From Candidatus Thalassarchaeum sp. (GTDB lineage: Archaea > Thermoplasmatota > Poseidoniia > Poseidoniales > Thalassarchaeaceae), in contig JAKURL010000002.1 in NCBI GenBank assembly GCA_022449345.1, forward strand, positions 36,302-100,301: 64,000 nucleotides of DNA. The letters are read 5' to 3'. This document shows positions 36,030 through 53,931 of this stretch, piece after piece. How positions within the stretch are numbered: the first letter of the stretch is position 1; the number at the start of each line of letters is the position of its first letter. Below the pieces are notes generated by a model. The model worked only from the letters and a program-made list of their open reading frames with translations, searched no databases and had not been told where the DNA came from. Position numbers and translations under genes: made by a program.

Positions 36030-39000
36030 ATGTCTATACCTCCTCAACTGCCGAGCAAGCGCAGGTATGCCTTGCTTCTTGCTGCATTGATGATTTTGTT
36101 GCCTTGGTCGGCATATTCTAGTGTAAATGAGTTAGATTCTGAGTTAGAAACTCGCGAGGTTTCGCAGGCGGCATGGGGTGCTTCCGGAAGCAACGACACC
36201 GGATGGATAGATTTGATCGCGACCGGAGCAGACCCTGTTAACGGAAGTTATGCGTACAGTGACCTATTCCTACCGTTTGCTCCGGGCGCTGAAATTTCCA
36301 ATTTAACCTTCGAGATAGCCGTCAACGGCTCGGCTGGTTATTGGGCTAACGAGCCACAACTGACTCTAATGGATACACAAACTCCAATCCTTGATTGGAG
36401 AGGTTATGGTGACCTTGGTCGGCAGGATGAGATGGAGAATAATCCGCCGACCGTACTCAATGGTACACTTAGCACTCATTTGAGACCCAACTCAATCTCA
36501 GATGCTTCTTGGGAACTGCCGGCCGGAGTGACACTCACAGATATGGTAATCGAGGCATTAAGGCCTGCCGATCCAAAGATATCCTACTCAGCAGTAGACA
36601 TAGAGATTCACGACACAGCGGTAAATCCAGTAGATGGCCGATTGTATCTATTGCTAGACGATGATCTTCTTCATCTAGACGCAAGGGCTCACAAGCAAAT
36701 TGTCGATATCGAAACAGGAATCATGGGAAGATCTCTAGCAATCGACGATGATTCTGGAATACTATTGATTGGAACAGAAGATGGCTCAGTGCTTTCACGC
36801 AGTTTGTCGAATTCTGCAATTCTGCCAGACCTGCGTACTAGTGATGGTTCTCAAAACGCCGGAATCTATGCCATAACAGTAGATGATCATGGAACAATTT
36901 GGGCGGCAGGAAATTGTACCATTTACTACAAGCCGATGGGGAATGTCGACTGGAGTGATTACGATTATTGCCAGTCGTTTAACATAGAGACTCCATCTGA
37001 CATTCTCATTATTGGCGATAGTGTCTACCTTGCAACCACTAGTTCTGGAGTACACATCATCAACTACATCACCGCTTCTTCTTCAGGCAGTGTTTCAGTC
37101 TCAATAGACTCTCAAATAGATTGGAGTACTCAGAATTTCCTTTCCTCAAACCTGATTACAGACCTCGAGATAGTTGGTAATAATCTTCTAATCGCGACCT
37201 ATGACACTGGAATCAATCGTAGAGACCTTACCTCACAATCTTGGATAGCCACTTGGTCAACAAATAACTGGTTGGCATCCAATCAGATTCACGGCTTGTC
37301 GCTTACCCCCGGCTGGCTTCATATCCTTGCTGGTACGACCATTCACGCCTATGATACCAATTCACTAATCTTCCAATCACAAAATCAACTTACTTCCCTC
37401 GGTTTGTATGGAAATGGTGCTATGGCCATTCCATGGCCTTCACATTCGGTTAGAGGCCCAATCACCTCCACAGCTCTGTTTAGCGATGGTTCTGGCACTT
37501 TGGGAATGCAGATTGGTGAGAACCCAGCAGGCGCTCTTACTCTTGTCAGTAGCCCATCTGTCGAAGGCATGGCGGTAGTCTCACGCATCAATGATGGTGC
37601 GTCGGGTGAGATTTGGGTTGCTGGGGGTAAAATAATCGATCGATTTGACGAATCAGATCGGGCTTGGGAGATTCCAATCGACATTAGTGACTACGTCAAC
37701 AATCCAGGTCAGATCGTTGCGATTGAACAGGATGGCAACGAGAAGGTTTGGATTGGAACGACTAATGCCGGAGTTCTGAGGCTAGAAAATACCGATGGAA
37801 CCTACATCGGAACTGTTTCAGGACTAAGTTCAACTCATGTTACTTCCTTATCTTACGACGATATCAACGGTTACTTGGTAGTAGGGCATAGCCAATCTGG
37901 AATTTCCATAATCGATACCAACCAGATGACATTAGTAGATACGATAACCACTTCCGATGGTTTAGATTCTGACTTCATAAATTCAGTTACAACTCGTTTT
38001 GGAATCGCCTACATCGCTACTCCGGATAAGGGAGTAATGCGTATCGAATTATCGACTTCGACAATCATCGGCTCGTGGCAATCACTCGGTGCCGATAATT
38101 TGGATGCAACACCGGTTGCAGTCGATGGTGACGTTGTTTACATCGGACTCTATGAGTTCGGTATTCTAGTCGTCGATAGACTAACTGGAGATATCTCAGA
38201 CCATTGGACACAGGATACCAACACTCTACCTGACGACGACGTTCTATCATTGGAAATGGACGATTTCGGTGGTCTATTAGTCGGCTCAGAGGGCTCCTTC
38301 TCCCGTTACGATGGCAGTACTTGGACCACTATGACAAGCAGTGGCCAATGGTGGAATCAACCTAGTGTATTCTACGATGTCACCAGCGACGGAGATGGGC
38401 TGTACGCTGGAACTAACAGAGGTGCTTGCAAGTGGGATTGGCAGTATCAATTCCAAGATTGTGTAAGCTCTGGTGATGGCCTCGAGAGTCGTTTCGTGTA
38501 TACCATAGAGATGCTAGCACCAAACCGTGCTTACACGGGTGGAAACTCCGGAGCTGGTATCGTCAATATGGATAATTTCTCAGTAATTGAGACTTGGACC
38601 GCCGGCGACAACACACAGCGCTCGCGTACGGTCAAGGTTGACGATATTCTCTACCTTGGATTCGAGAACACCGGCATAGCCCGATATGATTTGACAAATA
38701 ATCAGTGGTTGACTACTTGGGACGGAGATCAAGGATACATCAACGACGATGATGTAACCGCCTTAGTTCCAGGGGAAACATACGGAACAATTTGGGCAGG
38801 CGGAGATTTTGGTCTGACATTAATCGATGTCGTGAATGACGTAGTATTGATTGCTTGGGATAGAGGTTCGAATACCAACGGCCCTACACTTTCTAATTCA
38901 ATTCCTGCAGATATAGAAATCTACGGAGATGTATTGCATTACTCCACACAACGCTCAACCGGTTGGTGGGGCGGTGGCTCTGACAGCATCTATCGCATCA

Positions 39001-42000
39001 ATCTGACAACAAATTCTAGCATGACCACGCTTGAGGTTAACGATCAAACAGGTTGGACTGGAGTGGTGAACGGAATTGGAGTTGTAAACGACCAATTGTG
39101 GATTGGCATTAGACCTTCTCAGACTTGGAACGATGGAGATGGAACAATTGCTCGCTGGAATATGACCAACGAATCTTGGGAGGAAGATCTGGCAACAATC
39201 GGAAATGTTCTACGCGTTAATGCTCGATTCCTAGGTGATTGTTTCCCATTGAACACAAGTTCTTGTGAACTTTGGGTGGCGTATGGGAATTACATTCTAA
39301 GACGATTCAATGCAGATACAATGATGCTTCTAGATGAGTGGGTCGACGTTGACGGTCCAATTCGAGGAATGACCGAATTCGAAGGAGAATACCTATTCGC
39401 TAGCATGAATGGTATTCTTCGATGGAATCCAGTAAACGAAACTTGGCTAGATTCTTGGACTCCTGGAGACGGCTTACCATCGAGTTCTGAGGAAGAGTTC
39501 TACTCGATGGCGGTTATCGAAAACGATCTTTGGTTGGGTACAATGGAGTCCAGTGGCTGGAACTCAAACGCTCAGGTACTGAGAAAGAACGGAACAGACG
39601 GGAATTGGACATCTTGGGATTTAGGAACAGGAGACATCCCTGACGGATATCCAGCCGACATCAAGTTGTGTGATGATATTGTCCACATTGCTATCGGCGC
39701 TCGATTTTTCTGGGGCAATCAAGGTGGTGTTGCCCGTTATGACTTCGCAGACCATGATTCAGATTCCTTGACCAATGAATGGATTAGTGCGATGACTTCT
39801 GGTAGCTCGGGTTTATCCAATAATGATCCAAGGGCCGTGGCTTGCGATGAGAGCAACGACATTTTGTACATTGCATACGATACTGAGGGTGTAGGCATCG
39901 ATCGCTATAACTACAATACGGACACATACCTTTCCACCCTTACTTCAGTCGATGGAATCAGCGAGGACAGAATATTCCCTGGTGGATTGTTACATGACAA
40001 CAACGTCCTCTTGGCCGCTCACCAATTCGATAACCATGGAGGAATTTCTCGTTTGATTACTTCCGGAACAGCAACCGCAAATGGCCAAATCCTAGACCCC
40101 GGAATGGACGGCTGTTCTATCGAAAGAGCTCCTTCGTCTACAGGTCAAGTAGCCTACGCTGTGGGGCGCTCAGGTCAGACAACAGGACTGAACAGAGTCG
40201 ATAGGCTAGACAGTTCAGGATTAATCGCAAGTGGCTATGATGAACTCACTGGACTAACCAGTGGCCGCGTGATGGAAATAATCTCCAATGACACACATGT
40301 ATGGGTTACCTCATCCTTGGACTCTAACTCCTACTACGGGTCCTCGATTCTTCAGGGAGAAATTCTCTCGAATGGCTCTGTTAGATGGGAATTTGGTTAC
40401 AATTTCCGAGAGGATATAGTCAATGAAATGATGTTGGATGGTGAGACTCTATGGGTCACCACGGCAGGCCGAGGCCTGAAGGCAATTGACTTGAAACAGC
40501 GCCGTGTAACCTCCACTCCGCCGGCACTACACGCACAGATGGATGGAATGGTGTTGGAGAACGGTACGATGTATGTTGGACTAATGGGTAATCAAGGTTC
40601 AGCGGCCGGATTCCAGATGTTCAATACCCAAAATGCTCAGTGGGGTCATGGCAGTCTAATCGCCGGATTACCGAGCAACCTTGTGCGAGATTTCATCATT
40701 TACGGTGACCACATCATGATCGCTACCCATGGTGGAATTGGAATGTACAATACCACCCGTGACGATTGGGATAATCCGATAACCACAATCGATGGATTAC
40801 CTTCACCGATAATCACCCATTTACACGCCCTCAACACAACCATCCAGGGCGGTGGAAAGGTTCTGGCTGGCGGTGCAGCAGGTATGACGGTCCTGCATCA
40901 ACACAACCTTTCGGTCCTCAACACATTAGGATTCAATGATGGACTGATGGGTAATACCGTGAGTGGAATAGTAGAGGCAGGACCGAGTTCCCGCGTCGTT
41001 CAAAACGCCGATGGAACGAACACCACTCTTTACCACGACGCGTCGATATTCATCTCACACAATGGACAAGGGCCAACTCGACCCGGTGTAGCGGCCTGGG
41101 ATTTGGCCACCGATATGGCAAATGGTACTTACAATATCGACATGGTTCCAAGTAATGACATTAGGGCGATTGTTGCTGATGACTGGGGAGTTCACATCGC
41201 TACCGACGTCGCTCCTTTGGTACATTGGAACGGTAGCATGATGCAGATGGAAACTGGAGTTAGTACCAGTTCCTTACTTTCTTGGCCTCCATACGAGATG
41301 CACAGTGACGGCCAGCACATCGTGGTGATGAGTCCTCGTGGTCTCGACGTTGTAGATGTAGACGGAAGACACAATGTGGTGACTAGCCGAGTGATTACTG
41401 GTCTGCAAGGTGGATATGTCGACTTCAGCGGTTTCTATGCTGTTGGGAATGACGGTCTTCATGTCTACAAACCAGTAATTAGTCTGCAAGAGAATTCACG
41501 TGAGCATCAACGCCGTGCAGATCCGCTAACAGTATTGTATAGTGGCCGAAATTGGGATATTACCAATACAACTCATCCAGGAATGTCAACGGTTTTGGTA
41601 ACTCCTGATAATCCGATTGAGATTCCTGAGACCTCTAATGTTGCTGCCCCTGGTAAACTTCCGATGCACGTCGGAACAATGACGATGATGGCACCTCAAC
41701 GAGGTGCCTGGGTGTGGGCTCAGTCTACGTCGTTGAATTATACTGGAAGTTGGGATTTGGCTACCTCTAATGGAGGAATTCAACAGGCCTTCCAGTCAGC
41801 CATTTCTGCAGTAGGGCCTGGTACCTCTTCTGCAATTCTTCATGTCCAAATGCAGTCACCTCAGGATGGAGCCATTCAGGTTAGGTTGACTTATGATTGG
41901 GAGCGAATCGAGGCTCCAACTGTCATTACCAAACTTGAGGATAGACCCAATGATGGTGGAGGCGTAATCGAAGCCTCTTGGCTACCTGCAGAGGATGCTG

Positions 42001-44618
42001 CTTGGCATGCCTATAGATTGTATGTATGGGATTCGTCGGTTGACCCACTATGGGAACCAACTCAGGAAGACCTAGATTCATTCTCTACCTACATGAGATC
42101 CAACTTCTGGTCTCGCACAAATGCCACCATTACCCGAGCGGATAATGATGGACTAACCGAGCAATTGCGAGATGACCGTCAATACCGAGCAGCGGTGGTT
42201 ATCGAATATGCAGATGGCTCACTAGGTGTACCGATGGCATATCCTCACAATGTAACTCCGACTGATGAGATTCCAGCAGCCCCTGCTTGGATGACAGCTA
42301 ATCCAGTATCGGGAGGAGCAGCGGGTACCATCTTCCTAGAATGGGCCGCCTGTACAGAACTAGATCCGGATAGAGTAAGAATTTGGGCGGTCCAGCAGGA
42401 GATTACCAGTGCAGTAGGACTTTCTGACCCATTCGAATTCCATTGGAGTACCGGAAATACAACCGCCCTGCAGCTAGAAGGCGGAGTTGCTTACTGGTTT
42501 GCTGCAGTTTGTGTTGATGAGGCTGGACAGTCATCAATCGAGAACGCCACAATAATCGGACCTGTTGTTACTGCGGGTGGTTTGGATGATGGAATTCCAC
42601 CTGTTCCTATCACTGGAACAACAGCCATCGACGTTCCTAACGACGAAGGTGGTAGAATCAACGTCACTTGGGATGCAAATACCGAGGAGGACTGTACCTA
42701 CTACACGGTCTACACCTTGCCAGCCTCTGGCTGGCAACCCCCTTCAACGGTCGATGGTTGGCCAGTTGCAGGATATACAGACAGTTGTGAAACGACTTCG
42801 ATTATCATCGACTCTATAGGAGAAAGTAGTCTAATCGATGGAACGGTCTACTGGATAGGAGTAGTCGCTTACGATGATTGGGGCAATGGGGATGTCGACA
42901 ATGTATTGGTTGTCGACGCCACTCCTGAGGCAGATTTCGATGGTGAAGCGATACCACCAGACCGCGTAACTGGCCTCGAAGCTTGGGATTACCCAGATGA
43001 TGATGGAACGGCCATAGATATCCGTTGGAATCGCTCAGCCGCCGATGATTTCTCATTCTATACAGTCTGGGTATCCGAATACCCGTTGAATAATGTAACC
43101 GAGATATGGGAATTGTGTAGTGAAAATCCATCCTCGTGTGGTCTCGTTATCATTAACCAGCGTCAGTTTGGGGCAAATTTCCAGTTAGAATACACCGCGG
43201 AGAGAGCCCTTTACGGTAGTTCGGCAGATACCTTAGAGGCGACTCCAATCCACTCGATGATTCCGCTCTACGTGACAATCACCATTCACGATATCAGTGG
43301 AAATGTGCACCTAAGCGATCTTTCGGAACATATGGTCTTGGTCACTCCAATGGATAACCGTGGAGATATTTCTCCGCCAGACCGCCTAGAAGCGCCGGTA
43401 CTGAGAGATAGGCCCAACGATGCCGGAAATGCGATGTTCGTAGAATTCCAACAAAGTGATGCTTCTGACATTGCGGAATATTGGATTTACGCGGTAATTG
43501 ACACTCCAGTTCTATTGGAGAGAACCGATGACTTACACCCCGCGATGGTTATCGACAGGGAACAAGGTCTACCAGTTCTGCTAACCGAGTTCTCTGCTCA
43601 TGGAGATGACGAGGCGACACCACTGGTGCCAAACCGCCGAATTTACGTGGCGGTAGTCGCCGTTGATTCATCTGGCAATGCTTGGATGGACAACCTCGCT
43701 AGCACATGGATCGAGTTGTCCGACGAACTCTCCGCAGATCCATGTCCAGAGTGCCCAGATGTTAGTGGGCTACGGGCTAGTTGGAATGCTGCGGGTTCAC
43801 TGATTGAGGTAAATTGGGATAATGTCGAAGACCCGAAGTATGCAAGCTACTACGCCTTTGTCAGCCTTGACACATTCGATGATACACGTAACGCAACTTT
43901 GGTCAAGTCTGGAATGAGAGACACTATTTTGATTCTCAACGAATTCAACGGCGAGATGATTGACCGTGAAGAGAGATATTGGATTGAGATTGTAACTTGG
44001 AACGGCCAAGTCCACACATATCACGCCGACCCGATTGAGGTTTCACCTTGGGAGGAATCTTCCTTTGGTACAACCCAACCAGGAGATGATTCAGCAGGAG
44101 AGTCTTGGGTTGAGAGAATACTTGCAGGGGAGATGAACATGGTAATCCTCGCGCTATCGGTAGTAATGCTGCTAATCGGCGCACTGATGTTCATCAGACC
44201 AAGAGGAGAAGCGGCTCCAGAACCTTGGGAGATGGGCGCGCTCGAGGTCGAATTGGAAGAACAACTAGAGCGCGAGGCGGCAGGTCTCAGCGACGACGAA
44301 GAATTCGGCGTTGATGATTTGGAGATTGATGGTGGCTTGGTAGCCAATGCTCGGCGCAAAGACGGAGATGCTCCTGATTCAAGCGAGAGCGATTATACAG
44401 AGACAGCGGCGAGTGCTGGAGTACCTGTAGAAGAAGACCTCGGCCCAACACCATCTGCTGAAAGCGAGGTCATCGACGAATTACTCGGTGCCGAGGAAGA
44501 AGAATTAGATCTCGGCGATCTAGATGATATGGCCGATGACCTAAACTTGGATGAAAAGCCTGATGATGATTCCGAAGACGAGGATATTGACACCTCCTTC
44601 CTCGACGAGATGCTCTGA
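36030..44618 (+). CDS. giant secreted surface protein (2862 aa): signal peptide, many beta-propeller (Reg_prop/YVTN-like) repeats, FN3-like modules, a C-terminal TM anchor and an acidic cytoplasmic tail
   Basis: N-terminal signal; a repeating G..vW.GT..G.. pattern; C-terminal MVILALSVVMLLIGALMFI followed by a D/E-rich tail. Confidence 0.85.
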   Translation: MSIPPQLPSKRRYALLLAALMILLPWSAYSSVNELDSELETREVSQAAWGASGSNDTGWIDLIATGADPVNGSYAYSDLFLPFAPGAEISNLTFEIAVNGSAGYWANEPQLTLMDTQTPILDWRGYGDLGRQDEMENNPPTVLNGTLSTHLRPNSISDASWELPAGVTLTDMVIEALRPADPKISYSAVDIEIHDTAVNPVDGRLYLLLDDDLLHLDARAHKQIVDIETGIMGRSLAIDDDSGILLIGTEDGSVLSRSLSNSAILPDLRTSDGSQNAGIYAITVDDHGTIWAAGNCTIYYKPMGNVDWSDYDYCQSFNIETPSDILIIGDSVYLATTSSGVHIINYITASSSGSVSVSIDSQIDWSTQNFLSSNLITDLEIVGNNLLIATYDTGINRRDLTSQSWIATWSTNNWLASNQIHGLSLTPGWLHILAGTTIHAYDTNSLIFQSQNQLTSLGLYGNGAMAIPWPSHSVRGPITSTALFSDGSGTLGMQIGENPAGALTLVSSPSVEGMAVVSRINDGASGEIWVAGGKIIDRFDESDRAWEIPIDISDYVNNPGQIVAIEQDGNEKVWIGTTNAGVLRLENTDGTYIGTVSGLSSTHVTSLSYDDINGYLVVGHSQSGISIIDTNQMTLVDTITTSDGLDSDFINSVTTRFGIAYIATPDKGVMRIELSTSTIIGSWQSLGADNLDATPVAVDGDVVYIGLYEFGILVVDRLTGDISDHWTQDTNTLPDDDVLSLEMDDFGGLLVGSEGSFSRYDGSTWTTMTSSGQWWNQPSVFYDVTSDGDGLYAGTNRGACKWDWQYQFQDCVSSGDGLESRFVYTIEMLAPNRAYTGGNSGAGIVNMDNFSVIETWTAGDNTQRSRTVKVDDILYLGFENTGIARYDLTNNQWLTTWDGDQGYINDDDVTALVPGETYGTIWAGGDFGLTLIDVVNDVVLIAWDRGSNTNGPTLSNSIPADIEIYGDVLHYSTQRSTGWWGGGSDSIYRINLTTNSSMTTLEVNDQTGWTGVVNGIGVVNDQLWIGIRPSQTWNDGDGTIARWNMTNESWEEDLATIGNVLRVNARFLGDCFPLNTSSCELWVAYGNYILRRFNADTMMLLDEWVDVDGPIRGMTEFEGEYLFASMNGILRWNPVNETWLDSWTPGDGLPSSSEEEFYSMAVIENDLWLGTMESSGWNSNAQVLRKNGTDGNWTSWDLGTGDIPDGYPADIKLCDDIVHIAIGARFFWGNQGGVARYDFADHDSDSLTNEWISAMTSGSSGLSNNDPRAVACDESNDILYIAYDTEGVGIDRYNYNTDTYLSTLTSVDGISEDRIFPGGLLHDNNVLLAAHQFDNHGGISRLITSGTATANGQILDPGMDGCSIERAPSSTGQVAYAVGRSGQTTGLNRVDRLDSSGLIASGYDELTGLTSGRVMEIISNDTHVWVTSSLDSNSYYGSSILQGEILSNGSVRWEFGYNFREDIVNEMMLDGETLWVTTAGRGLKAIDLKQRRVTSTPPALHAQMDGMVLENGTMYVGLMGNQGSAAGFQMFNTQNAQWGHGSLIAGLPSNLVRDFIIYGDHIMIATHGGIGMYNTTRDDWDNPITTIDGLPSPIITHLHALNTTIQGGGKVLAGGAAGMTVLHQHNLSVLNTLGFNDGLMGNTVSGIVEAGPSSRVVQNADGTNTTLYHDASIFISHNGQGPTRPGVAAWDLATDMANGTYNIDMVPSNDIRAIVADDWGVHIATDVAPLVHWNGSMMQMETGVSTSSLLSWPPYEMHSDGQHIVVMSPRGLDVVDVDGRHNVVTSRVITGLQGGYVDFSGFYAVGNDGLHVYKPVISLQENSREHQRRADPLTVLYSGRNWDITNTTHPGMSTVLVTPDNPIEIPETSNVAAPGKLPMHVGTMTMMAPQRGAWVWAQSTSLNYTGSWDLATSNGGIQQAFQSAISAVGPGTSSAILHVQMQSPQDGAIQVRLTYDWERIEAPTVITKLEDRPNDGGGVIEASWLPAEDAAWHAYRLYVWDSSVDPLWEPTQEDLDSFSTYMRSNFWSRTNATITRADNDGLTEQLRDDRQYRAAVVIEYADGSLGVPMAYPHNVTPTDEIPAAPAWMTANPVSGGAAGTIFLEWAACTELDPDRVRIWAVQQEITSAVGLSDPFEFHWSTGNTTALQLEGGVAYWFAAVCVDEAGQSSIENATIIGPVVTAGGLDDGIPPVPITGTTAIDVPNDEGGRINVTWDANTEEDCTYYTVYTLPASGWQPPSTVDGWPVAGYTDSCETTSIIIDSIGESSLIDGTVYWIGVVAYDDWGNGDVDNVLVVDATPEADFDGEAIPPDRVTGLEAWDYPDDDGTAIDIRWNRSAADDFSFYTVWVSEYPLNNVTEIWELCSENPSSCGLVIINQRQFGANFQLEYTAERALYGSSADTLEATPIHSMIPLYVTITIHDISGNVHLSDLSEHMVLVTPMDNRGDISPPDRLEAPVLRDRPNDAGNAMFVEFQQSDASDIAEYWIYAVIDTPVLLERTDDLHPAMVIDREQGLPVLLTEFSAHGDDEATPLVPNRRIYVAVVAVDSSGNAWMDNLASTWIELSDELSADPCPECPDVSGLRASWNAAGSLIEVNWDNVEDPKYASYYAFVSLDTFDDTRNATLVKSGMRDTILILNEFNGEMIDREERYWIEIVTWNGQVHTYHADPIEVSPWEESSFGTTQPGDDSAGESWVERILAGEMNMVILALSVVMLLIGALMFIRPRGEAAPEPWEMGALEVELEEQLEREAAGLSDDEEFGVDDLEIDGGLVANARRKDGDAPDSSESDYTETAASAGVPVEEDLGPTPSAESEVIDELLGAEEEELDLGDLDDMADDLNLDEKPDDDSEDEDIDTSFLDEML

Positions 44619-45443: not shown

Positions 45444-47690
45444 ATGCAGGTTGTTGAACGCGTTGAGAACACCTCGCATGAATCTCCACTAATTGCGATG
45501 GTAAAGGCAGGAAATCGCGACCGCGATGAATTGCTCCTTCACTCGGGCGGGCCGGTCACCGACTTATCACAAAACTCGATGCTACCCGCCTTGGACAGCA
45601 TTCGCTTTCTATTCTTTGAGCCACATGGTGAAGACACACCCGAAGGCTCTCCACTGCAGGGTGAAGTCTGCCTAGGTTCTCCTCCTCCTCTGAATTTGGT
45701 TCGCCAACGCTTAGTGGATGGGCGCTGGCAGACTGAGGAAGAGTACAACCCATCCACATTGGAGCAAGCACTGTCCATTGTGGCTGAACAGGAAATCGCA
45801 GCACAGGTCAGCGAAAACTATCCGATTACTCCGGGTGGATTCGCTGGCTTGCTTGGATATGATCTCGGTCGCTGGTCAAATGTAATTCGATTGAGTAATA
45901 CACCACAACCCGGCATCCTGCTTGGTGTATTGTGGAGATGCGATGCGTGGTGGATACACGAGCGCGAGAGGGAACAATTGCGACTTCTAGCTCTCGAAGG
46001 TCATGATTGGTTGAATCAAGAATTGCCGGAACTTGCCGAATTGCAAATTCCATCAAAACTCGAATCGCGAGTTCCGGACAGCGAGAGCGATTCCGACCAT
46101 GCTAGAAAGGTAGAGCGAATACGTGAGGCGATTCGTGGCGGCCATCTCTACCAAGTTAACTACGGTCGCAGATGGCAAGGAGAAATGCAAGGTCATCCGT
46201 GGGACACATTCCTGCGAATGACTCGTTCTAACCCCGCTCCATTCGCCTCTTGGCTGCACTTAGCCGACCACGGCTGGGCGGTCGCGTCCGCCTCTCCAGA
46301 ACGATTGATGAGACTAGATTTCGGAGTCGTCTCAACACGACCGATTAAGGGAACTCGAGCAAGGGGTTCAAGCGAGGAGGAAGATTCTGCATTACGTCTT
46401 GAATTAGCCTCGTCAGAAAAAGAAATGGCGGAGCATTTGATGCTGGTAGATTTGGAGCGCCATGACCTTTCATCGGTTTGTGAATCCGGATCCGTACATT
46501 GGTCAGAATGTCGCATTGAAGCGCTGGCAAATGTTCAGCATTTGGTATCTGGAGTCGAAGGAAAACTTAGTTCGAAATCGAGCGCTGGAAAGTCTCTCGC
46601 TGCCCTTTTCCCAGGCGGCTCAATTACAGGTTGTCCAAAGGTTGTAACAATGGCTGCTATCGACCAACTTGAGGGGACTCCGCGTAGTGCTTGGACAGGT
46701 TCTGTCGGCCACCTTAATCAAGGCGCGGGACAGGCCGATTGGAACATACTAATTCGCACTATGGAGGCTCACAGTGGTCCAGATTCATGGTATGCTACGG
46801 TTCAGGCCGGCGGCGGTGTTGTAATTGATTCTAATCCCGCCGCCGAGGTCGAGGAAGCTCGCTGGAAGGCAGCTGCAGTTACCGAAGCGACATGGGGATT
46901 CCGTACTGGATTTAGCAGTGAAGAACTGCCGGAGAGAAAAGTAGGAATCCTCCCTCTCCCGAAAGTCGAAGGTGCATTGGGCAGAATCACCCCAGGGCTG
47001 CTAAAGAAATTCGAGTCGCAAACGGATGCCCATGTCCTATTGGTAGACAATCTCGATTCCTTTACCAATAATATCGCCGAATCACTACACAGACTTGGAG
47101 CAAGGGTTACTATTGTCGAAGGGCGGCCTGCTCAAGACCTCGATGTGAGTGCCCAAGTCGACACTTGGCTCACCACCCATCGTCCAACTCACATCGTACT
47201 AGGGCCGGGACCATCTCGGCCAGAGGTGTCTCCACTAAGTATGGAAATTGCCGACAGAGCATTACAAAATCGACTGAGTATTTCGGACTCACCAATTCCA
47301 CTTCTAGGTTGGTGCTTAGGCCACCAAGCGATTGGTCTTGCAGCAGGATGGGATCTGATTGAATCTCCTATGGGGGCCGTTCATGGAGTTCCTTCAAGAA
47401 TCACACATGACGGCTCAGGCCTATTCCAAAGCGCCCCTGAAAATGTTGTAATGATGCGCTACAATAGTCTGGTACTGGAATCAACAAATGACTATATCAG
47501 AGCAAATTCATGGGATGAGTCTGGCTCTCTCATTATGGGAATAAGTCACCCTCATCTTCCGATTGAGGGAGTTCAATTTCATCCCGAATCAGTGGGTAGC
47601 CCTGATGGGCTTGCTCTGCTAAAATCATTCCTCAATATCTCAACCGAAGTTAGCAAGCCCGAGGCCAAGAAACAGGTTAGACAACCGTAG
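45444..47690 (+). CDS. pabBA: aminodeoxychorismate/anthranilate synthase fusion: chorismate-binding component I plus a class-I glutamine amidotransferase (PabB-PabA)
   Basis: Chorismate-binding motifs (LVDLERHD, PGGSITGCPK); C-terminal GATase (GWCLGHQAIG, HPES). Confidence 0.75.
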   Translation: MQVVERVENTSHESPLIAMVKAGNRDRDELLLHSGGPVTDLSQNSMLPALDSIRFLFFEPHGEDTPEGSPLQGEVCLGSPPPLNLVRQRLVDGRWQTEEEYNPSTLEQALSIVAEQEIAAQVSENYPITPGGFAGLLGYDLGRWSNVIRLSNTPQPGILLGVLWRCDAWWIHEREREQLRLLALEGHDWLNQELPELAELQIPSKLESRVPDSESDSDHARKVERIREAIRGGHLYQVNYGRRWQGEMQGHPWDTFLRMTRSNPAPFASWLHLADHGWAVASASPERLMRLDFGVVSTRPIKGTRARGSSEEEDSALRLELASSEKEMAEHLMLVDLERHDLSSVCESGSVHWSECRIEALANVQHLVSGVEGKLSSKSSAGKSLAALFPGGSITGCPKVVTMAAIDQLEGTPRSAWTGSVGHLNQGAGQADWNILIRTMEAHSGPDSWYATVQAGGGVVIDSNPAAEVEEARWKAAAVTEATWGFRTGFSSEELPERKVGILPLPKVEGALGRITPGLLKKFESQTDAHVLLVDNLDSFTNNIAESLHRLGARVTIVEGRPAQDLDVSAQVDTWLTTHRPTHIVLGPGPSRPEVSPLSMEIADRALQNRLSISDSPIPLLGWCLGHQAIGLAAGWDLIESPMGAVHGVPSRITHDGSGLFQSAPENVVMMRYNSLVLESTNDYIRANSWDESGSLIMGISHPHLPIEGVQFHPESVGSPDGLALLKSFLNISTEVSKPEAKKQVRQP

Positions 47691-47692
47691 CG

Positions 47693-48091
47693 TTGAAGGA
47701 GCGGTATTCGCTGGCTGGGTTGACGTCTATGCCAGTCTGTCGAATGTGCACCCAAAACTACCCGAACTCTCAGTTCGTAAGTGGTAATGGCCCACGCTAC
47801 CAAGTTTGCGTTCGCTGCGCTACCGAGAATGATATGCTGGCTGAGGGAGAGGAGACAGCACTCTACTCAGACGAACTAGTTCGAGCTCGCTCGGCACTAT
47901 TCGCTCGACGCTACAGACCGTGGGCTTTTCTTGGAGCAGGATGGTTACTCTTCTTCACCTATGGATCTGGAATCGAATTGTGGTCGAACATACTGCTAGG
48001 CACTCTAGTTCTCGGAACACTGGCAACTCCAGTGCTTCACTTCATGACATCGACGAAATTCAAGGCAGAACTCGCCGGACTAACTCCCTGA
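47693..48091 (+). CDS. small membrane protein with an N-terminal zinc ribbon
   Basis: CRMC...CVRC followed by two TM helices. Confidence 0.45.
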   Translation: MKERYSLAGLTSMPVCRMCTQNYPNSQFVSGNGPRYQVCVRCATENDMLAEGEETALYSDELVRARSALFARRYRPWAFLGAGWLLFFTYGSGIELWSNILLGTLVLGTLATPVLHFMTSTKFKAELAGLTP

Positions 48092-48141
48092 GGGTAAATT
48101 ATCCAGTTTCCTACCCAATCAGCCTCGGGAACTCTTGAAAT

Positions 48142-48156
48142 AGCCCCGTAGGGGCT
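48142..48156 (+). terminator. 6-bp GC hairpin (agcccc-gta-ggggct) 3' of the 47693-48091 gene; same 13-nt core as at 22368-22382
   Basis: Perfect stem; about 50 nt after the stop codon. Confidence 0.3.
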
Positions 48157-48431
48157 GAGAATTCAGAGGGAACGGTGGGTTCCCTATGAAAGCCCGTGAG
48201 ATTGGATGCGTAAAAGAGGAGGAGCAAACGAAGTAATACAGCAGTTCCACAATAACCGTGAATGGAGCGCAGTGCAGCGTTTAGAACGGTCGTGGAAGGC
48301 ATACCCAGTGGGCTCCCAAATAGCATCCATCACTCCCGGACGAATCGGCTTCGCGCAAGGACGAGCGCGAGCATTCGCTGGAAAGAGAGAACAGCGGGTT
48401 CTCTGAACTGATTTTTGGAAGTGAAAAGAAA

Positions 48432-49850
48432 ATGCAGAAAACAAAGAATGCGAGCATGATGATTGCGCTGCTCCTTGTTTTGATGGCTGGTTCCGTTGGC
48501 GTTTCCGCCGATGGTTCTGACCCACTCGACCCCTCCGACGGAGGGGCCGACTGGGACGGAGACGGCCTGACAAACGCAGAGGAGACAGCTGAAGGCACGG
48601 ACCCCACCAACCCCGACACTGACAACGATGGTCTACCGGACGGTTGGGAGGTTGCATACGGACTAAATCCAAACTCGGCTAGTGACGCTAACGCGGACCC
48701 AGACGGTGATGGATTGACGAACTCTCAGGAGTACGCGTCCGGAACCAACCCCAACGCGGCTGACACCGACGGTGATGGGCAGAACGACGCAAGCGATCCT
48801 TTCCCGAACGATCCGAACAACGGATCGATGTCGGATTCGGATGGCGACGGTATCCCAGATGCGTATGATCCGGACTACGGTGACAACGGAGAGGGAACTG
48901 GAGACGGCGGAACTGACGGTGGCGGAGATTCCGACCAAGACGGAGAGGGCCAAGGTCAGAACCAAGGATCCCAATCCGGTCAAGACGGTCAGCAGGGCAG
49001 CGGTCAGCAGGGTGGAGAACAATCCAACCAGCAAGACAACGGCCAAGGCCAGCAGCAAGGCGGAGAACAATCCGGCCAGCAGGGTGACCAAGAGAGTCAA
49101 GACCAGAATGGTAACAACCAGAATGGTCAGAACCAGCAGCAGCAAGGCCAGACCCAAGACAACAGTCAGGGTCAGCAGGGCCAGCAGTCCGACCAGCAGC
49201 AGAGTCAGCAGCTCGACAACCAAGACCAGAACGGTGAGAACGACAACGATGGCGATGGTATCCCAGACGACCTGGACTTCGATGATGACCAGGACGGCAT
49301 CCCCGACAATGTGGATGAATTCCCTGAGGACCACGACAACGACGGCATCAATGACGCTGAGGATGATGATGACGATGGCGACGGCATAGACGACCGCGAG
49401 GAAGTCAATGACGGCGATCCTAACTCAGATATCTACGATCACGACAACGATGGCGTTCGCGACAACATCGATTTCGACATCGACAATGACGGCATCGACA
49501 ATTGGAATGACGTTGGACCGAACGGTGAGGACTACTCACGCGATCACGACAACGACGGACTAAATGACGGAGTCGACCCAGACGACGATAACGACGACAT
49601 CCTAGATGTCGACGAGATCGACGGCGCTATCGGTCTCTGGAGATACGACCACGACAACGATGGTCTAACCGACAGAGTCGATACCGATGACGACAACGAC
49701 GGACTTTCCGACTGGTTCGAGCAGAACGATGGCTGGGATAACACCGGCCAGTTCGATCACGACAACGACGGCATCCCAGATCATCTGGATGACGACGATG
49801 ACGCCGACGGCATCCTCGATGAGGATGAAAACGACGGCAGCCTACTGTGA
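48432..49850 (+). CDS. secreted, highly acidic protein with thrombospondin-type-3-like Ca-binding Asp repeats (DxDxDGxxDxxD) flanking a Q/G/N-rich low-complexity core
   Basis: Signal peptide; at least 12 repeats of the DHDNDG..D..D / DTDGDG type; a roughly 100-aa Q/G/N/S tract. Confidence 0.75.
   Translation: MQKTKNASMMIALLLVLMAGSVGVSADGSDPLDPSDGGADWDGDGLTNAEETAEGTDPTNPDTDNDGLPDGWEVAYGLNPNSASDANADPDGDGLTNSQEYASGTNPNAADTDGDGQNDASDPFPNDPNNGSMSDSDGDGIPDAYDPDYGDNGEGTGDGGTDGGGDSDQDGEGQGQNQGSQSGQDGQQGSGQQGGEQSNQQDNGQGQQQGGEQSGQQGDQESQDQNGNNQNGQNQQQQGQTQDNSQGQQGQQSDQQQSQQLDNQDQNGENDNDGDGIPDDLDFDDDQDGIPDNVDEFPEDHDNDGINDAEDDDDDGDGIDDREEVNDGDPNSDIYDHDNDGVRDNIDFDIDNDGIDNWNDVGPNGEDYSRDHDNDGLNDGVDPDDDNDDILDVDEIDGAIGLWRYDHDNDGLTDRVDTDDDNDGLSDWFEQNDGWDNTGQFDHDNDGIPDHLDDDDDADGILDEDENDGSLL
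49240..49840 (+). repeat. DNA-level tandem degenerate repeats (gaccacgacaacgacggc...) encoding the Asp-repeat units
   Basis: The gacaacgacgg / gatgacgacg motifs recur many times; explains the spurious antisense ORFs. Confidence 0.6.
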
Positions 49851-49958
49851 TACAGTAGCGCTGGTCGATTATTGCTCAGGCCCGCGGTCCGTTGATTCGC
49901 GGTGACAGGTTCCCTAGGGGTGATTCAGTCCCTAGGCGAACCGCCCCTTTTTCCATCC

Positions 49959-50972
49959 TCAGAAATCGAAGAGGGTTGGTTGATTTTCGGACTTCAGATG
50001 ATTTGCTGATGCTAGTCTGTCTAGGGCTCTCTGCAATCTACCATCAGAGAATCCATATTCACCTTGTAGGAATTCACGTAAGTCCTTCTCAACGGCACGC
50101 TGCGCTTGGGGAATAGGATCTGGATGAACAGGATGATTGAGAAATAACCCTCGTATAGTTTCGATATCCTCTGGCATTTCGAATTCCTTCACTTCAGCAA
50201 CCGCTTCCATTGTACCATGTTCTTTGATTAGTTTCAGACCAGTTTTTGGACCAATTCCCTTGATTCCAGGGTGGAAGTCGGTTCCAATCATTATCGCAAG
50301 GTCAACCAGTTGCTCTTTAGTAATCTCGTGAGTGTCGAGCATTTCCTTCAATACAACCTTCTCAGCGGTTAGTACACGGCCGAATTTCTTGCGTCCGTGA
50401 CTGGTTAGATTCCGAATCATTACAGGAGATCCATACAGAAGAGTGTCCCAATCTTGGCTAGCAACAGCGGCTACCTCTCCATTCGCACAACGAACCGCTC
50501 CTGCGCCTTCAGCTTCCATCGGTGCCTCAATCCAGACTAGGCCTAGGCAATCGAATAGCCGCTTGGTCTCGGCGACCATGGCACGAGTGTATTCAGCGGT
50601 CTGTGGGCCGAGTTTCTTTGCGAGAGCCATGTCTCCCGCCTCAACGGCAGCTTCCCACTTTTCTACAGCCTCGACTTTACGCTCCTTTCTTCCGGCAAGT
50701 GTTTCCAACTTCAGGTCATGTGGACGACCATCAAAGATGAATACCGGCTCGATTCCATTCTCTAGCATCCAGGTCGCTCGATCAAGAAATCCCATCAGAT
50801 GAGCAACAGGCTTTCCATTGAAGGAAAGCGGCTTACCATCTTGGCCGACAAGGCTAGTGATGAATTGGTAGGCATTCAGGAATACGTCGACGGCAATTTT
50901 CTGACCCGCCATCTCATTCAATTCTAGAGGGTGTGCGGTTGCTAAATCTCTCAAATTACAGCCCAGATTCAC
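49959..50972 (-). CDS. fen: flap endonuclease 1
   Basis: XPG-N and XPG-I domains; N-terminus ...LAGKKIAIDALNAIYQF-like (here MAGQKIAVDVFLNAYQF). Confidence 0.9.
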   Translation of the reverse strand: MNLGCNLRDLATAHPLELNEMAGQKIAVDVFLNAYQFITSLVGQDGKPLSFNGKPVAHLMGFLDRATWMLENGIEPVFIFDGRPHDLKLETLAGRKERKVEAVEKWEAAVEAGDMALAKKLGPQTAEYTRAMVAETKRLFDCLGLVWIEAPMEAEGAGAVRCANGEVAAVASQDWDTLLYGSPVMIRNLTSHGRKKFGRVLTAEKVVLKEMLDTHEITKEQLVDLAIMIGTDFHPGIKGIGPKTGLKLIKEHGTMEAVAEVKEFEMPEDIETIRGLFLNHPVHPDPIPQAQRAVEKDLREFLQGEYGFSDGRLQRALDRLASANHLKSENQPTLFDF

Positions 50973-50995
50973 TCCCCCCTGCCGATGGCTAGCCT

Positions 50996-52210
50996 ATGCT
51001 AACCGTCGAGGCATTTAGGGTTGAAGTCGGGCGCGAGGAGGCGGGAGGAACGGACTTGAGCGGGCTAACTCTAGTTGGAAGCGGCTGGCATCCAGCACTG
51101 TTCCGCTCAGAGGCAGAGGCATTAGTTGGTCCAGTCGGTTTTGTTCATCCAAGGGTTGTAATTACTAATTCGATAGATGAGGAAGCGCTCAATCGTCTAA
51201 GCAGATCAGCTCTAGTTGACGAAGTGCTTTGCAAAGCAGAACATAGCGAGGTTATTGAACCAACAAGAATAATCCAACGAATTACAGATTGGGCAAGCAA
51301 GAATCTACCAAACGGAAGCTTTGCGGTCAGAGTCAGAGTAATCGGTTCGGGTTTAGCAGGCTTTTCGCGGTCCGCTATCGCACAGGGTGTGGGAGGAGAA
51401 CTCTCTAGTGATTCGCATCCAGTAGATTTGGAAAACCCAGAAAATGAAATTGTAGTAATTCTAGCAGGCCCAGAAGACCCACCAAACCATCCTGACCCAT
51501 TATACCTCTCACCACCGATGATAATCTGGGGATTGAAACAAGAAAATTGGCAGCGTTCAGGTTGGGGAGGTCGTTCACCGATGGACCGCCCATTTTTCCA
51601 ACCGGTGTCTTTGGAACCAAGATTGGCGCGACTGATGATTTCTCTTGGTCATCGCTCCGACACAGAACCTACAACAGTAATCGATCCGTTCTGCGGAACC
51701 GGTGGAATAGCAATTGAAGCCATGTTAGCAGGATTGAATGTCCTCGCAAGTGATCTTGACCCGAAGATGGTCAAAGGCACCAAGGAGAATTTGCAATGGG
51801 CATCTGAAGACCTCTGTAGCGGCTATTCTGCAACATGGGATGTGCAAGAGTCTGGCGTCGGGCTTACTCCTGATGTTTGGGGCAAGGTAGGTGGTGCAAT
51901 CTTTGCTTTCGACCCTCCATATGGCCGCAATGCTTGGAAGTCTGATGATGGTTACCAACTATTCCTCAAGGCCTGTTCTGCTGCTAGAACAATTGACCAT
52001 TCAGGCTCTCTATGTACACTTCTTCCAACTGACCCAGCGATTCTGAAAGATAATTCAGACGAACCGTTAGACTATCTCGTTATGGGCAAGCCTTGGTCAA
52101 AGGTGGTTGACGAAATGCTCGACCGTGGGTGGAAAGTAGCCCTGACTGCACCGGTCAAAGTTCACCGCTCGTTGGCACGATTATTGGTTGTCGCGCACCC
52201 GTCGCATTGA
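50996..52210 (+). CDS. THUMP-domain tRNA (guanine-N2) methyltransferase, Trm11/Trm-G10 family
   Basis: Motif I VIDPFCGTGGIAIEA; motif IV FAFDPPYG; an N-terminal THUMP-like region. Confidence 0.7.
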   Translation: MLTVEAFRVEVGREEAGGTDLSGLTLVGSGWHPALFRSEAEALVGPVGFVHPRVVITNSIDEEALNRLSRSALVDEVLCKAEHSEVIEPTRIIQRITDWASKNLPNGSFAVRVRVIGSGLAGFSRSAIAQGVGGELSSDSHPVDLENPENEIVVILAGPEDPPNHPDPLYLSPPMIIWGLKQENWQRSGWGGRSPMDRPFFQPVSLEPRLARLMISLGHRSDTEPTTVIDPFCGTGGIAIEAMLAGLNVLASDLDPKMVKGTKENLQWASEDLCSGYSATWDVQESGVGLTPDVWGKVGGAIFAFDPPYGRNAWKSDDGYQLFLKACSAARTIDHSGSLCTLLPTDPAILKDNSDEPLDYLVMGKPWSKVVDEMLDRGWKVALTAPVKVHRSLARLLVVAHPSH

Positions 52211-52341: not shown

Positions 52342-53382
52342 TCAAAGCAAATCCGAGTATGGAATTAAGTGCTTAATTTCCCCATACAAATTATTTCTTT
52401 GTTGTTTAAGTTCTTTGATTTCGATACTAACCGTTTCTTTGTATTTCTGCATTTTTCCTATATTTTTGGTTAGTTTTTGAATTTCCTCATCATTCTTTTT
52501 TATCTTGTCCTGTTTCCTTTCTTCTTTCCGCAATAATAGATTTGCATCTCGTACTTCCCTCTCAGCTTTTGCAACCTTGTCCGCTAATTTGCCTTCCTTC
52601 TTTTTGTTCATTTCTCGAGCGCTATCATTTCTAGCCTCTGCAGCACCATAACCAATGCCCAAGACAATAATACTTCCACAACAGCCCAACACAGGCATAG
52701 GCTCGTCCATGCTGTAACTTTCAGCGGCACTACTGGTAAACCAATTTGTTCTTTCATCATTTCCGTTGGAACAATCTTCTTTGTCATCTAGAACCTTAGA
52801 ACCATGAATCGTCTCTCCATTTCCACAATCAAATCCTTGCTCAAAATATGAATCCCTTTGAGTTTCCCAGTGCATCATACCGAGAGCCAAAATAATAATC
52901 GCTGCGATCCACCATCCAAGCAAGAATCCCTCGGAATCAACATAGACTGGATGTCTGTTAAGTTCTCTTCTCTTTTCATCCAATTGAACCTTTTTTGTTA
53001 CTTTTTTTACATTTTCTCTCAGTTCAACAAGTGTCCCAGAACTGATAGTTTTTTCTGCCCTACTTGTCCTTGAATAACGGATGATTCTCTTCTTTAATTC
53101 CTTTTTATTTCCAGAGACCGGCAGTCCATATCCGTGTAATATATCCTTCAATTGATTTACAGTTAGAGAATCGGGGATCGAGTCTCCCCACAACTGAGTT
53201 AAGTCATCAAGATCAAGTTGCTGGAATTGATTGTCAGATTCTAACTTCTCAATAAGTTTCTTTGATTTAGCCAATTCTTTAGAGTTAATTTTCTTCTTTT
53301 CTTGCAATTTAGCAATTTCTGCATTTTTTTTATAGATTTCTTTGAGAGATTTTTTGAGGAATTTCAGGTCTCTTTTCCCCAT
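52342..53382 (-). CDS. element cargo: coiled-coil protein with a SAP-like motif, two TM helices flanking a Cys-containing extracytoplasmic loop, and a K/E-rich C-terminal coiled coil
   Basis: LTVNQLKDILHGYGLPVSGNKKELKKRI SAP-like; TMs FLLGWWIAAIIILALGMM and VLGCCGSIIVLGIGYGAA; low-GC codon usage. Confidence 0.6.
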   Translation of the reverse strand: MGKRDLKFLKKSLKEIYKKNAEIAKLQEKKKINSKELAKSKKLIEKLESDNQFQQLDLDDLTQLWGDSIPDSLTVNQLKDILHGYGLPVSGNKKELKKRIIRYSRTSRAEKTISSGTLVELRENVKKVTKKVQLDEKRRELNRHPVYVDSEGFLLGWWIAAIIILALGMMHWETQRDSYFEQGFDCGNGETIHGSKVLDDKEDCSNGNDERTNWFTSSAAESYSMDEPMPVLGCCGSIIVLGIGYGAAEARNDSAREMNKKKEGKLADKVAKAEREVRDANLLLRKEERKQDKIKKNDEEIQKLTKNIGKMQKYKETVSIEIKELKQQRNNLYGEIKHLIPYSDLL

Positions 53383-53931
53383 TCAATCACCTAATCTCTT
53401 GTTTAATTGGAAATGAGCATCATCAACCGATTCGATAACTTGTTTCGCCTGTTTAATGTCCGCAAAGGACAATTTTGAGAAATGTTCAACTTTGACATCG
53501 TGGTCCTTAATTATGGTTTGAAGGTCCTCTATCTGGACAATTGCATATTCAGGATATTTTTTTGAATATTCCAATATTTTTTCTAATTCATCTTCGATTC
53601 CAAGGATAATCATTTTCAAATCTCCGACGAAATTTTCTTCCTTTTCTTTTCTCTCCAAATATCCTTTTACGTCCCATGCAATACTAGATAATGTGTCCAA
53701 TTTATTATCCAATTCAACAAGTCCACTCATGGTAGCAATTTGAAGTTCAGCGACGGATCCAATTGAATTTAGGATTAAATTTGTTGAACGTCTAATATCT
53801 TCAGATGTTTCTCTTTGCATAGCCCTCATTCTTCCGATGTCGGACTTCATTGACCTTAATTTGACGGAATTATACCCTGAGAATCCAAGACCGAAACCGC
53901 TACCCCAAGAGGTCTTTGGACGCTTGCTCAT
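53383..53931 (-). CDS. element cargo: 182-aa predicted helical cytoplasmic protein, unknown function
   Basis: ORF abuts the downstream gene with a 0-nt gap, which suggests an operon; same low GC. Confidence 0.55.
   Translation of the reverse strand: MSKRPKTSWGSGFGLGFSGYNSVKLRSMKSDIGRMRAMQRETSEDIRRSTNLILNSIGSVAELQIATMSGLVELDNKLDTLSSIAWDVKGYLERKEKEENFVGDLKMIILGIEDELEKILEYSKKYPEYAIVQIEDLQTIIKDHDVKVEHFSKLSFADIKQAKQVIESVDDAHFQLNKRLGD

Follow-up and report, generated by a model that had tools for sequence, protein, structure and literature searches.

The open reading frame (ORF) at positions 48432–49850 on the forward strand of a 64-kb window (the whole stretch of 64,000 nucleotides analysed here, from contig JAKURL010000002.1 of Candidatus Thalassarchaeum sp.) is a genuine, strongly conserved gene of the marine Group II (MGII) archaea. 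It encodes an acidic, predicted exoprotein with thrombospondin type-3 (TSP3) repeats, a kind of protein that is already known. From N to C terminus, the protein comprises a predicted signal peptide, a 139-amino-acid (aa) block of the bacterial TSP3 type (TSP3_bac), a 105-aa core rich in Gln, Gly, Asn, Ser and Asp, and a 202-aa, cysteine-free block resembling the type-3 repeats of thrombospondin. The chief points of the locus are a Gly-Gln repeat, (GQ)n, that is polymorphic in length among relatives, a low-complexity core that is oddly conserved, and an unclassified RNA upstream of the gene.

Marine Group II archaea count among the most abundant plankton yet to be cultured, and we know of no established means by which they touch particles, algae or each other. 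'Thrombospondin genes' are widespread in Poseidoniales and have been linked to adhesion (Rinke et al. 2019, PMC6461757). The class is known at the level of annotation, and the architecture, repeat tract and conservation of the present gene are not described in that paper; in the literature on MGII thrombospondin, TSP3 or structured RNA, we found only its general statement and one citation of it. Where such genes have been cited for MGII adhesion without description of any gene, this locus provides a concrete core-genome candidate: a small, predicted secreted protein in three parts, more conserved than the neighbouring FEN1 and carrying a measurable (GQ)n polymorphism. The features of the gene are as follows.

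48432–49850, forward strand: acidic-protein gene, 472 aa plus stop (ORF list, composition, synteny, and ratio of non-synonymous to synonymous substitution rates, dN/dS)
48432–48509, forward strand: predicted signal peptide, residues 1–26, MQKTKNASMMIALLLVLMAGSVGVSA (sole hydrophobic segment, conserved in all orthologs; by inspection)
48510–48926, forward strand: N block, residues 27–165, five DxDxDG loops of the bacterial TSP3 type (DTDNDGLPDGWEVAYGLNPNSASDANADPDGDGLTNSQEY...) (Pfam PF18884, invariant length)
48927–49241, forward strand: core rich in Gln, Gly, Asn, Ser and Asp, residues 166–270 (composition; low complexity, amino-acid conservation)
48948–48959, forward strand: residual (GQ)2, GGC CAA GGT CAG, the site of the hypervariable (GQ)n of orthologs (alignment, tract counts)
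49242–49847, forward strand: C block, residues 271–472, eleven DxDxDG loops, cysteine-free and thrombospondin-type-3-like

The encoded protein

Asp makes up 25.0% of the 472 residues, Gly 15.3%, Gln 10.4% and Asn 10.2%; there are no cysteines and only seven basic residues (five Arg and two Lys), and the mature protein has a computed pI of ~4.05 and a net charge of ~-133. The signal peptide proposed in the first-pass annotation, which had been made from the letters of the DNA alone, is borne out on inspection: the N terminus (MQKTKNASMMIALLLVLMAGSVGVSA followed by DG) is arranged in n, h and c regions like a Sec signal peptide, with predicted cleavage before DG, and it contains the sole hydrophobic 19-mer of the protein (Kyte-Doolittle 2.1, against a maximum of -0.24 in the remainder). 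Inspection and hydrophobicity analysis revealed no lipobox cysteine, transmembrane segment or C-terminal sorting signal, and no anchor in the protein.

A regular-expression census of the protein found 16 DxDxDGxxDxxD/E loops, where more than 12 had been claimed. In a six-frame scan of the window, all 16 matches fall inside this ORF, and such confinement to one ORF of 64 kb is far from chance. Other-frame ORFs with 223, 253 and 219 open codons overlap the gene in frames +1, -0 and -2, respectively. They look spurious because selection acts on the annotated frame; the first-pass annotation had likewise called such ORFs spurious and had attributed them to tandem DNA repeats, whereas we trace them to the GAY/CAR/GGN/AAY codon diet of the gene. 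The same codon usage accounts for two local deviations at 48000–50000 of the window, a strong AT skew of +0.23 to +0.30 and a GC content of 0.55, compared with ~0.49; they are a compositional footprint of the gene rather than a sign of foreign DNA. An exact-sequence look-up found no database record for the 472-aa protein.

The whole protein matches the Pfam family TSP3_bac (PF18884) at 55.7 bits (cut-off 25; E 4.3e-15) in five stretches, and the N block alone matches it at E 2.9e-18 in four. By this 22-residue profile, membership of TSP3_bac extends over residues 27–165 only. It is the sole Pfam family found with the whole protein at E <= 1, and the C block and the core, searched separately, gave no Pfam matches at E <= 10. 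The core corresponds to the tract of roughly 100 residues of Gln, Gly, Asn, Ser and Asp noted previously: these five residues account for 93% of positions 166–270 (43 Gln, 22 Gly, 12 Asn, 11 Asp and 10 Ser of 105), and 16 of the 105 residues are acidic. In a search of the Protein Data Bank (PDB), the core matched nothing but prunin, a seed storage protein, in its Gln-rich region.

In the C block, the last nine of the eleven loops form five units that start every 35–36 aa, the final unit being truncated, with the pattern DHDNDGxxDxxDxDxDNDGxxD followed by an aromatic residue (Y/F/W). An exhaustive HMMER search with the C block yielded 4115 cluster representatives, of which 120 were at E <= 1e-30. 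Highest among them rank giant surface proteins, 1–7 thousand residues long, and Pfam analysis of six sampled relatives revealed TSP_3, TSP3_bac, CHU_C (type IX secretion system, T9SS), OmpA and cadherin-like domains. An AF2 model of the whole protein from its single sequence has a pLDDT of 41 and no secondary structure, the core included, and is uninformative; the C block modelled with a 39-row multiple sequence alignment reaches a pLDDT of 67 as coil with short turns, as would be the case for loops whose folding requires metal ions. With the C-block model, Foldseek retrieved no solved structures other than type-3 repeats, namely those of thrombospondin-1, thrombospondin-2 and COMP (E 3e-5 to 1e-4), and phmmer against the PDB gave weak matches to COMP and thrombospondin-1. 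The likeness to thrombospondin type-3 repeats is real at the level of loop and motif, without a demonstrated common fold. None of six other high-scoring, high-coverage TSP3 hits whose sequences we read has a Gln-rich core, and the tripartite layout appears, as far as sampled, to be specific to this archaeal lineage.

Synteny, selection and the constancy of the Asp blocks

Orthologs came from two sets of contigs: 22 from genomes, for which FEN1 served as the anchor, and 66 from metagenomes, for which the upstream RNA did. On its upstream side the gene is preceded by pabC, a fused pabAB and a 132-aa zinc-ribbon membrane ORF (m132), and on its downstream side it is followed by a convergent FEN1 gene (XPG_N/XPG_I) and then by a THUMP methyltransferase gene. 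None of these neighbours looks like the glycosylation or secretion partner that the first-pass annotation had envisaged. Almost all of 76 Poseidoniales (MGIIb) contigs have the order pabAB, m132, RNA, acidic gene, FEN1, and this conserved synteny places the gene in the conserved core genome and not in a flexible island.

The FEN1 of the window is 93% identical to that of Poseidoniales/Thalassarchaeaceae (MGIIb) metagenome-assembled genomes (MAGs) and one single-amplified genome. Compared with close genomes, the three blocks of the acidic protein are 92–100% identical, with proportions of non-synonymous (pN) and synonymous (pS) differences of 0.01–0.05 and 0.25–0.53; in the comparison with a clade at 69% FEN1 identity, the blocks retain 82–84% identity at a pS of ~0.86. 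The core alone is 96–100% identical in the close genomes and 84% identical in the distant clade, with abundant synonymous change, and dN/dS is ~0.03–0.06 in the N block, the low-complexity core and the C block alike. By these substitution patterns, all three parts are under purifying selection, and the core is conserved as protein rather than as DNA, which is unusual for a 'linker'.

The lengths of the blocks are also conserved. Between anchors the N block measures 123 aa in 43 alleles, whereas in 58 alleles the core measures 92 or 93 aa and the C block 202 or 203 aa; exactly 16 motifs are present in 47 of the 53 complete alleles. These counts bear on an earlier reading, in which the DNA of the Asp repeats (49240–49840) was taken as a slippage-prone tandem array and hence as a possible hypervariable, phase-variable contingency locus. 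Tandem organization does exist, in that a 59-nucleotide (nt) unit occurs seven times and the last five copies are spaced 105–108 nt apart. However, the copies are only 61–76% identical to the reference, and Tandem Repeats Finder, applied to 47500–51000, reported four arrays of 20–35 nt and none with a period of ~105 nt, so that no large array is present. The repetition of the Asp region lies in the protein motif, not in near-identical DNA. Moreover, the C block is free of indels across clades with heavily diverged synonymous sites, and the repeat that does vary in this gene has units of 6 or 12 nt and keeps the frame. Block lengths invariant in 43–58 alleles refute hypervariability of the Asp repeats, which are under strong purifying selection, and a contingency locus there is extremely improbable. 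The length polymorphism that such a locus would display is striking in the (GQ)n tract of the gene family, but not in the Asp repeats.

A length-variable Gly-Gln tract

The (GQ)n tract lies between the N block and the core in all relatives and is nearly lost in the window. Its repeat unit is mostly a 12-nt dimer, GGCCAA-GGTCAA (GGCCAAGGTCAA), with the pattern GGYCAR. The longest run comprises 21–39 units in eight complete genome copies and 3–42 units in metagenome contigs. Alleles with identical flanking protein differ here only, the mid-region being 76, 80, 112 or 116 aa long in one group and 80, 116 or 118 aa in another; they have common ends and different internal blocks of units, and every unit variant is synonymous. 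Variation of this type resembles the outcome of slippage or unequal exchange, with selection for the Gly-Gln peptide.

Since the units are 6 or 12 nt long, changes in tract length remain in frame, as in all 46 complete alleles analysed, and there is no on/off switching as in a classical contingency locus, whether by frameshift or by promoter spacing. The variable, near-perfect short repeat of such loci is found in the gene family, but not in the window allele, with its two units, or in the Asp repeats.

The window allele, (GQ)2, is the shortest of the 46. It might be the product of assembly collapse, in which case the true gene would resemble the orthologs of 520–570 aa. The tract does disrupt assemblies: 11 genome contigs and ~13 metagenome contigs end in or at it and two further genome contigs have N-gaps there (~25 in total), and assembled lengths plateau at ~36–39 units, so that the long alleles are probably underestimated. 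On the other hand, the 12 nt of repeat left in the window are far below the usual assembly k-mers, at least one of which would be expected to remain after collapse; the junction is cleanly in frame; and other short alleles occur on independent contigs, namely (GQ)3 in a 491-aa protein (contig L091) and (GQ)5 (L042). Because so little repeat is left and the junction is clean, we think that the short allele is natural and that collapse is unlikely.

The tract not only breaks metagenome assemblies but also yields chimeric and truncated database entries, which makes the family easy to miss. The closest database proteins (P0012, P0067, P0083, P0095 and P0121–P0144) are mostly fragments of 90–300 aa or chimeras in which an unrelated N terminus is fused to an Asp-repeat C terminus; in the contig of P0067 (L002, locus 1–1480 examined), homology to the window begins only at 49468. 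Chimeric and truncated entries were set aside as evidence of architecture because of their unrelated N termini, and full-length orthologs of GenBank MAGs did not turn up in protein searches. Some genomes also contain a tandem duplicate of the gene, with two copies at 7038–10665 of L019 and FEN1 ~3.9 kb past the RNA in L044. The second copy of L019 (L019a, 539 aa) has no (GQ)n, and its core is diverged, rich in Ser, Pro and Gly, and 61% identical.

Proposed function

By analogy with better-known repeat proteins, we propose, with about even confidence, that the product works outside the cell as a bridging or adhesion protein, stiffened by Ca2+ and equipped with a tunable tether. The anchorless, poly-anionic protein would be secreted by the Sec route, and each loop would coordinate Ca2+ in the manner of the type-3 repeats of thrombospondin and COMP and of the Ca site of anthrax protective antigen (PA). 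Seawater contains ~10 mM Ca2+, and both modules should therefore be Ca-loaded and stiffened outside the cell. Bound Ca2+, together with the conserved aromatic residues, could bridge the modules to anionic polymers or to the envelope of the cell itself. The two Asp-rich modules would be joined by a Gln/Gly tether, consisting of the conserved 92-aa Gln/Gly/Asn core and, in relatives, the (GQ)n spacer; an in-frame change in (GQ)n would alter the reach of the molecule without switching the protein off, and (GQ)2 in the window would be the minimal allele.

Several points weigh against this proposal. Pfam and hydrophobicity searches reveal no recognisable anchor, lectin or receptor-binding domain, and the C block and the core are unrecognised by Pfam. 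The sequence data establish the architecture, the homology of the loops, conservation under purifying selection, Asp blocks of fixed length and a variable (GQ)n; secretion, Ca2+ binding, the adhesive or bridging role and the tuning of the tether are inferred. The (GQ)n lengths come from short-read assemblies, so that with their plateau they may be lower bounds or partly shaped by assembly. Furthermore, a core so strictly conserved points to a particular partner or structure, and a simple flexible tether does not account for this.

Some of the same properties would suit a cation sink or envelope conditioner, which might buffer Ca2+, Mg2+ or trace metals at the cell surface, inhibit CaCO3 nucleation on the cell or form part of a Ca-bridged S-layer or glycocalyx. 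Calsequestrin and the Asp-rich proteins of biomineralisation are models for a poly-Asp sink, and the Asp content, the net charge and the lack of an anchor or ligand-binding domain all point in this direction; a core-genome site among housekeeping neighbours and conservation above that of FEN1 would likewise be expected of a basic envelope function. However, the Asp residues are placed in precise, conserved DxDxDG loops with conserved aromatic residues and not in featureless poly-Asp, a conserved core and a variable spacer would be superfluous in a simple sink, and for the S-layer variant no S-layer domain was found by Pfam. We consider such a role rather doubtful.

The composition of the core raises another alternative, that the core and (GQ)n constitute a prion-like, self-associating domain and that the protein forms a Ca-cross-linked hydrogel or matrix, with tract length setting the threshold of assembly. 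Besides the 93% of Gln, Gly, Asn, Asp and Ser, (GQ) runs in relatives extend to as many as 42 units, the core matches only the Gln-rich region of prunin in the PDB, and its strong conservation argues for more than a passive linker. Yet typical prion-like domains are uncharged, unlike a core with 16 acidic residues in 105, and AF2 predicts no structure for it; we regard self-association as quite improbable and retain the bridging protein with a tunable tether as the preferred proposal.

A conserved structured RNA upstream of the gene

The 340-nt spacer at 48092–48431, which separates the acidic gene from the 132-aa membrane ORF, contains two further features.

48119–48411, forward strand: conserved structured RNA of ~293 nt, a 5' leader or a separate non-coding RNA (ncRNA) (fold z-score, covariation, no Rfam match)
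48417–48424, forward strand: Shine-Dalgarno-like element GGAAGTGA, 7 nt before the ATG (by inspection; conserved in most of 42 aligned upstream regions)

The spacer is more conserved than the flanking genes, and the z-scores of its minimum free energy against shuffled sequences are -3.8 for the plus strand and -4.2 for the minus strand. In an alignment of 42 distinct sequences, a structure of 74 pairs in 12 helices has 91.6% of its cells paired, compared with 34–47% when the partners are slid. Compensatory changes occur at 25 pairs, and none of 500 shuffles reaches the observed percentage paired or covariation score. Frequent G-U pairs assign the RNA to the plus strand. Rfam gave no match at the gathering threshold for the window, at E <= 10 for the RNA alone or at E <= 0.5 for six divergent loci, the sole match at E <= 1 being a chance-level S15-leader that overlaps the start of the gene; RNase P, signal recognition particle (SRP) RNA and known riboswitches were set aside, as none matched at the sensitivity used. 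A 66-aa ORF at 48206–48406 was rejected as coding sequence, because single-base indels and compensatory pair changes argue otherwise.

The RNA is single-copy per locus in blastn searches. Of the 66 metagenome contigs, 63 reach far enough to contain the start codon of the acidic gene, and in all 63 it lies 235–266 nt downstream. This linkage is not decisive for a leader, because the whole neighbourhood from pabAB through m132, the RNA and the gene to FEN1 is syntenic. In the tandem duplication of L019, only the last 28 nt of the RNA (the 3' hairpin plus leader) are copied before the second paralog. A T-run after the closing helix is conserved in some lineages but not in all. The Shine-Dalgarno-like element and the unconserved T-run favour, without settling the matter, a leader over a separately terminated ncRNA.

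A wider reading unites the RNA with the repeat tract: the RNA would be a new MGII class of long cis-regulatory leader for the exoprotein gene, responsive, for example, to an ion or a ligand, and (GQ)n would be a knob by which populations tune the tether length of a core surface protein, perhaps according to the pressure of viruses or grazers or the type of particle. We offer this only tentatively, and find it somewhat doubtful. Long structured leaders are, to our knowledge, rare in Archaea, and the RNA, if it does represent a novel class of leader or ncRNA, would extend a very short list of archaeal structured regulatory RNAs.

In essentially all loci, the 132-aa ORF itself (47693–48091, forward strand; 55–99% identity) directly precedes the RNA and the acidic gene. 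It has two CxxC pairs, which are zinc-ribbon-like, and a hydrophobic C-terminal half, and it has no Pfam match.

Other features of the window

A giant ORF of 2862 aa at 36030–44618 (forward strand) has beta-propeller matches (PorZ_N, EML-type) and, near its C terminus, a transmembrane segment beyond which the tail is very acidic; the product is probably a large protein of the cell surface. This acidic tail is the reason why a second Asp-rich ORF appears at the edge of several syntenic loci.

An island of low GC content (0.36–0.43, clearly below the rest of the window) is located at ~52–54 kb, with genes at 52342–53931 on the reverse strand. One island protein, of 346 aa, contains a SAP domain, a sub-threshold match to LDL-receptor class A and Lys/Glu-rich, coiled-coil-like stretches; SAP and LDL-receptor class A domains are unusual for an archaeon. 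The 182-aa ORF that follows has no matches.

Comparison with known systems

Initially, the Asp repeats had been likened to both dockerin and thrombospondin type-3 calcium loops. Dockerin (type I, PF00404) was rejected, with no Pfam match for the whole protein at E <= 1 or for its parts at E <= 10, whereas the likeness to thrombospondin stands, through the TSP3_bac profile, the relatives of the C block and the Foldseek matches. Membership of a known S-layer, Calx-type or RTX family was also rejected: there are no Pfam or NCBIfam matches to Calx-beta (PF03160), RTX/hemolysin-type repeats or archaeal S-layer proteins, and the signal peptide is the sole hydrophobic segment, with no membrane or PGF-CTERM-type anchor.

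With the type-3 repeats of thrombospondin and COMP (TSP_3, PF02412; PDB 1UX6, 1YO8, 2RHP and 3FBY) the protein shares runs of DxDxDGxxDxxD, a unit of ~36 aa with two or three loops, and a 'wire' poor in secondary structure that is expected to fold around Ca2+. In contrast to thrombospondin, it lacks the disulfide-staple cysteines (0 Cys in 472 aa) and has no EGF or lectin domains. The 36-residue TSP_3 profile gives no match to the C block at E <= 10 and only 10.7 bits (E 0.43; cut-off 25) with the N block. The link to the eukaryotic family is indirect, because only the relatives carry TSP_3 and the Foldseek matches to type-3 repeats are local.

The DxDxDG calcium-binding loop class also includes anthrax PA (Binary_toxB, PF03495) and EF-hand-like loops. 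The signature D-x-D-x-D-G-I-P-D-x-x-E is shared with anthrax PA, and several homologs carry PF03495; in the present protein the N block matches this family weakly, below the Pfam threshold (E 0.025), and the toxin fold is absent.

For the (GQ)n tract, the nearest parallels are the Ser-Asp stalk of staphylococcal ClfA/Sdr proteins and the fungal FLO/ALS adhesins, surface proteins in which the copy number of in-frame repeats varies between strains and determines how long a spacer is. The in-frame repeat with a degenerate unit of 6 to 18 nt is common to all, and here all DNA variants are synonymous. Compared with ClfA/Sdr, the dipeptide is Gly-Gln instead of Ser-Asp and there is no cell-wall anchor, and a stalk role would be putative.

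A further related class is that of the bacterial TSP3 proteins, such as Myxococcus CglD and MtsD and the OmpA-linked or T9SS surface proteins. The partner domains of that class (lipoprotein box, OmpA, CHU_C or other) are absent here, and identity with the MtsD or CglD equivalogs was rejected, since the NCBIfam scores (MtsD NF047639, 35.4 bits against a cut-off of 800; CglD NF033765, 30.3 against 400; residues 27–121 only) are far below the curated cut-offs. Nevertheless, the N block is a bona fide TSP3_bac array, of a class whose members are secreted or surface-located, Ca-dependent and annotated with roles in adhesion or cohesion.

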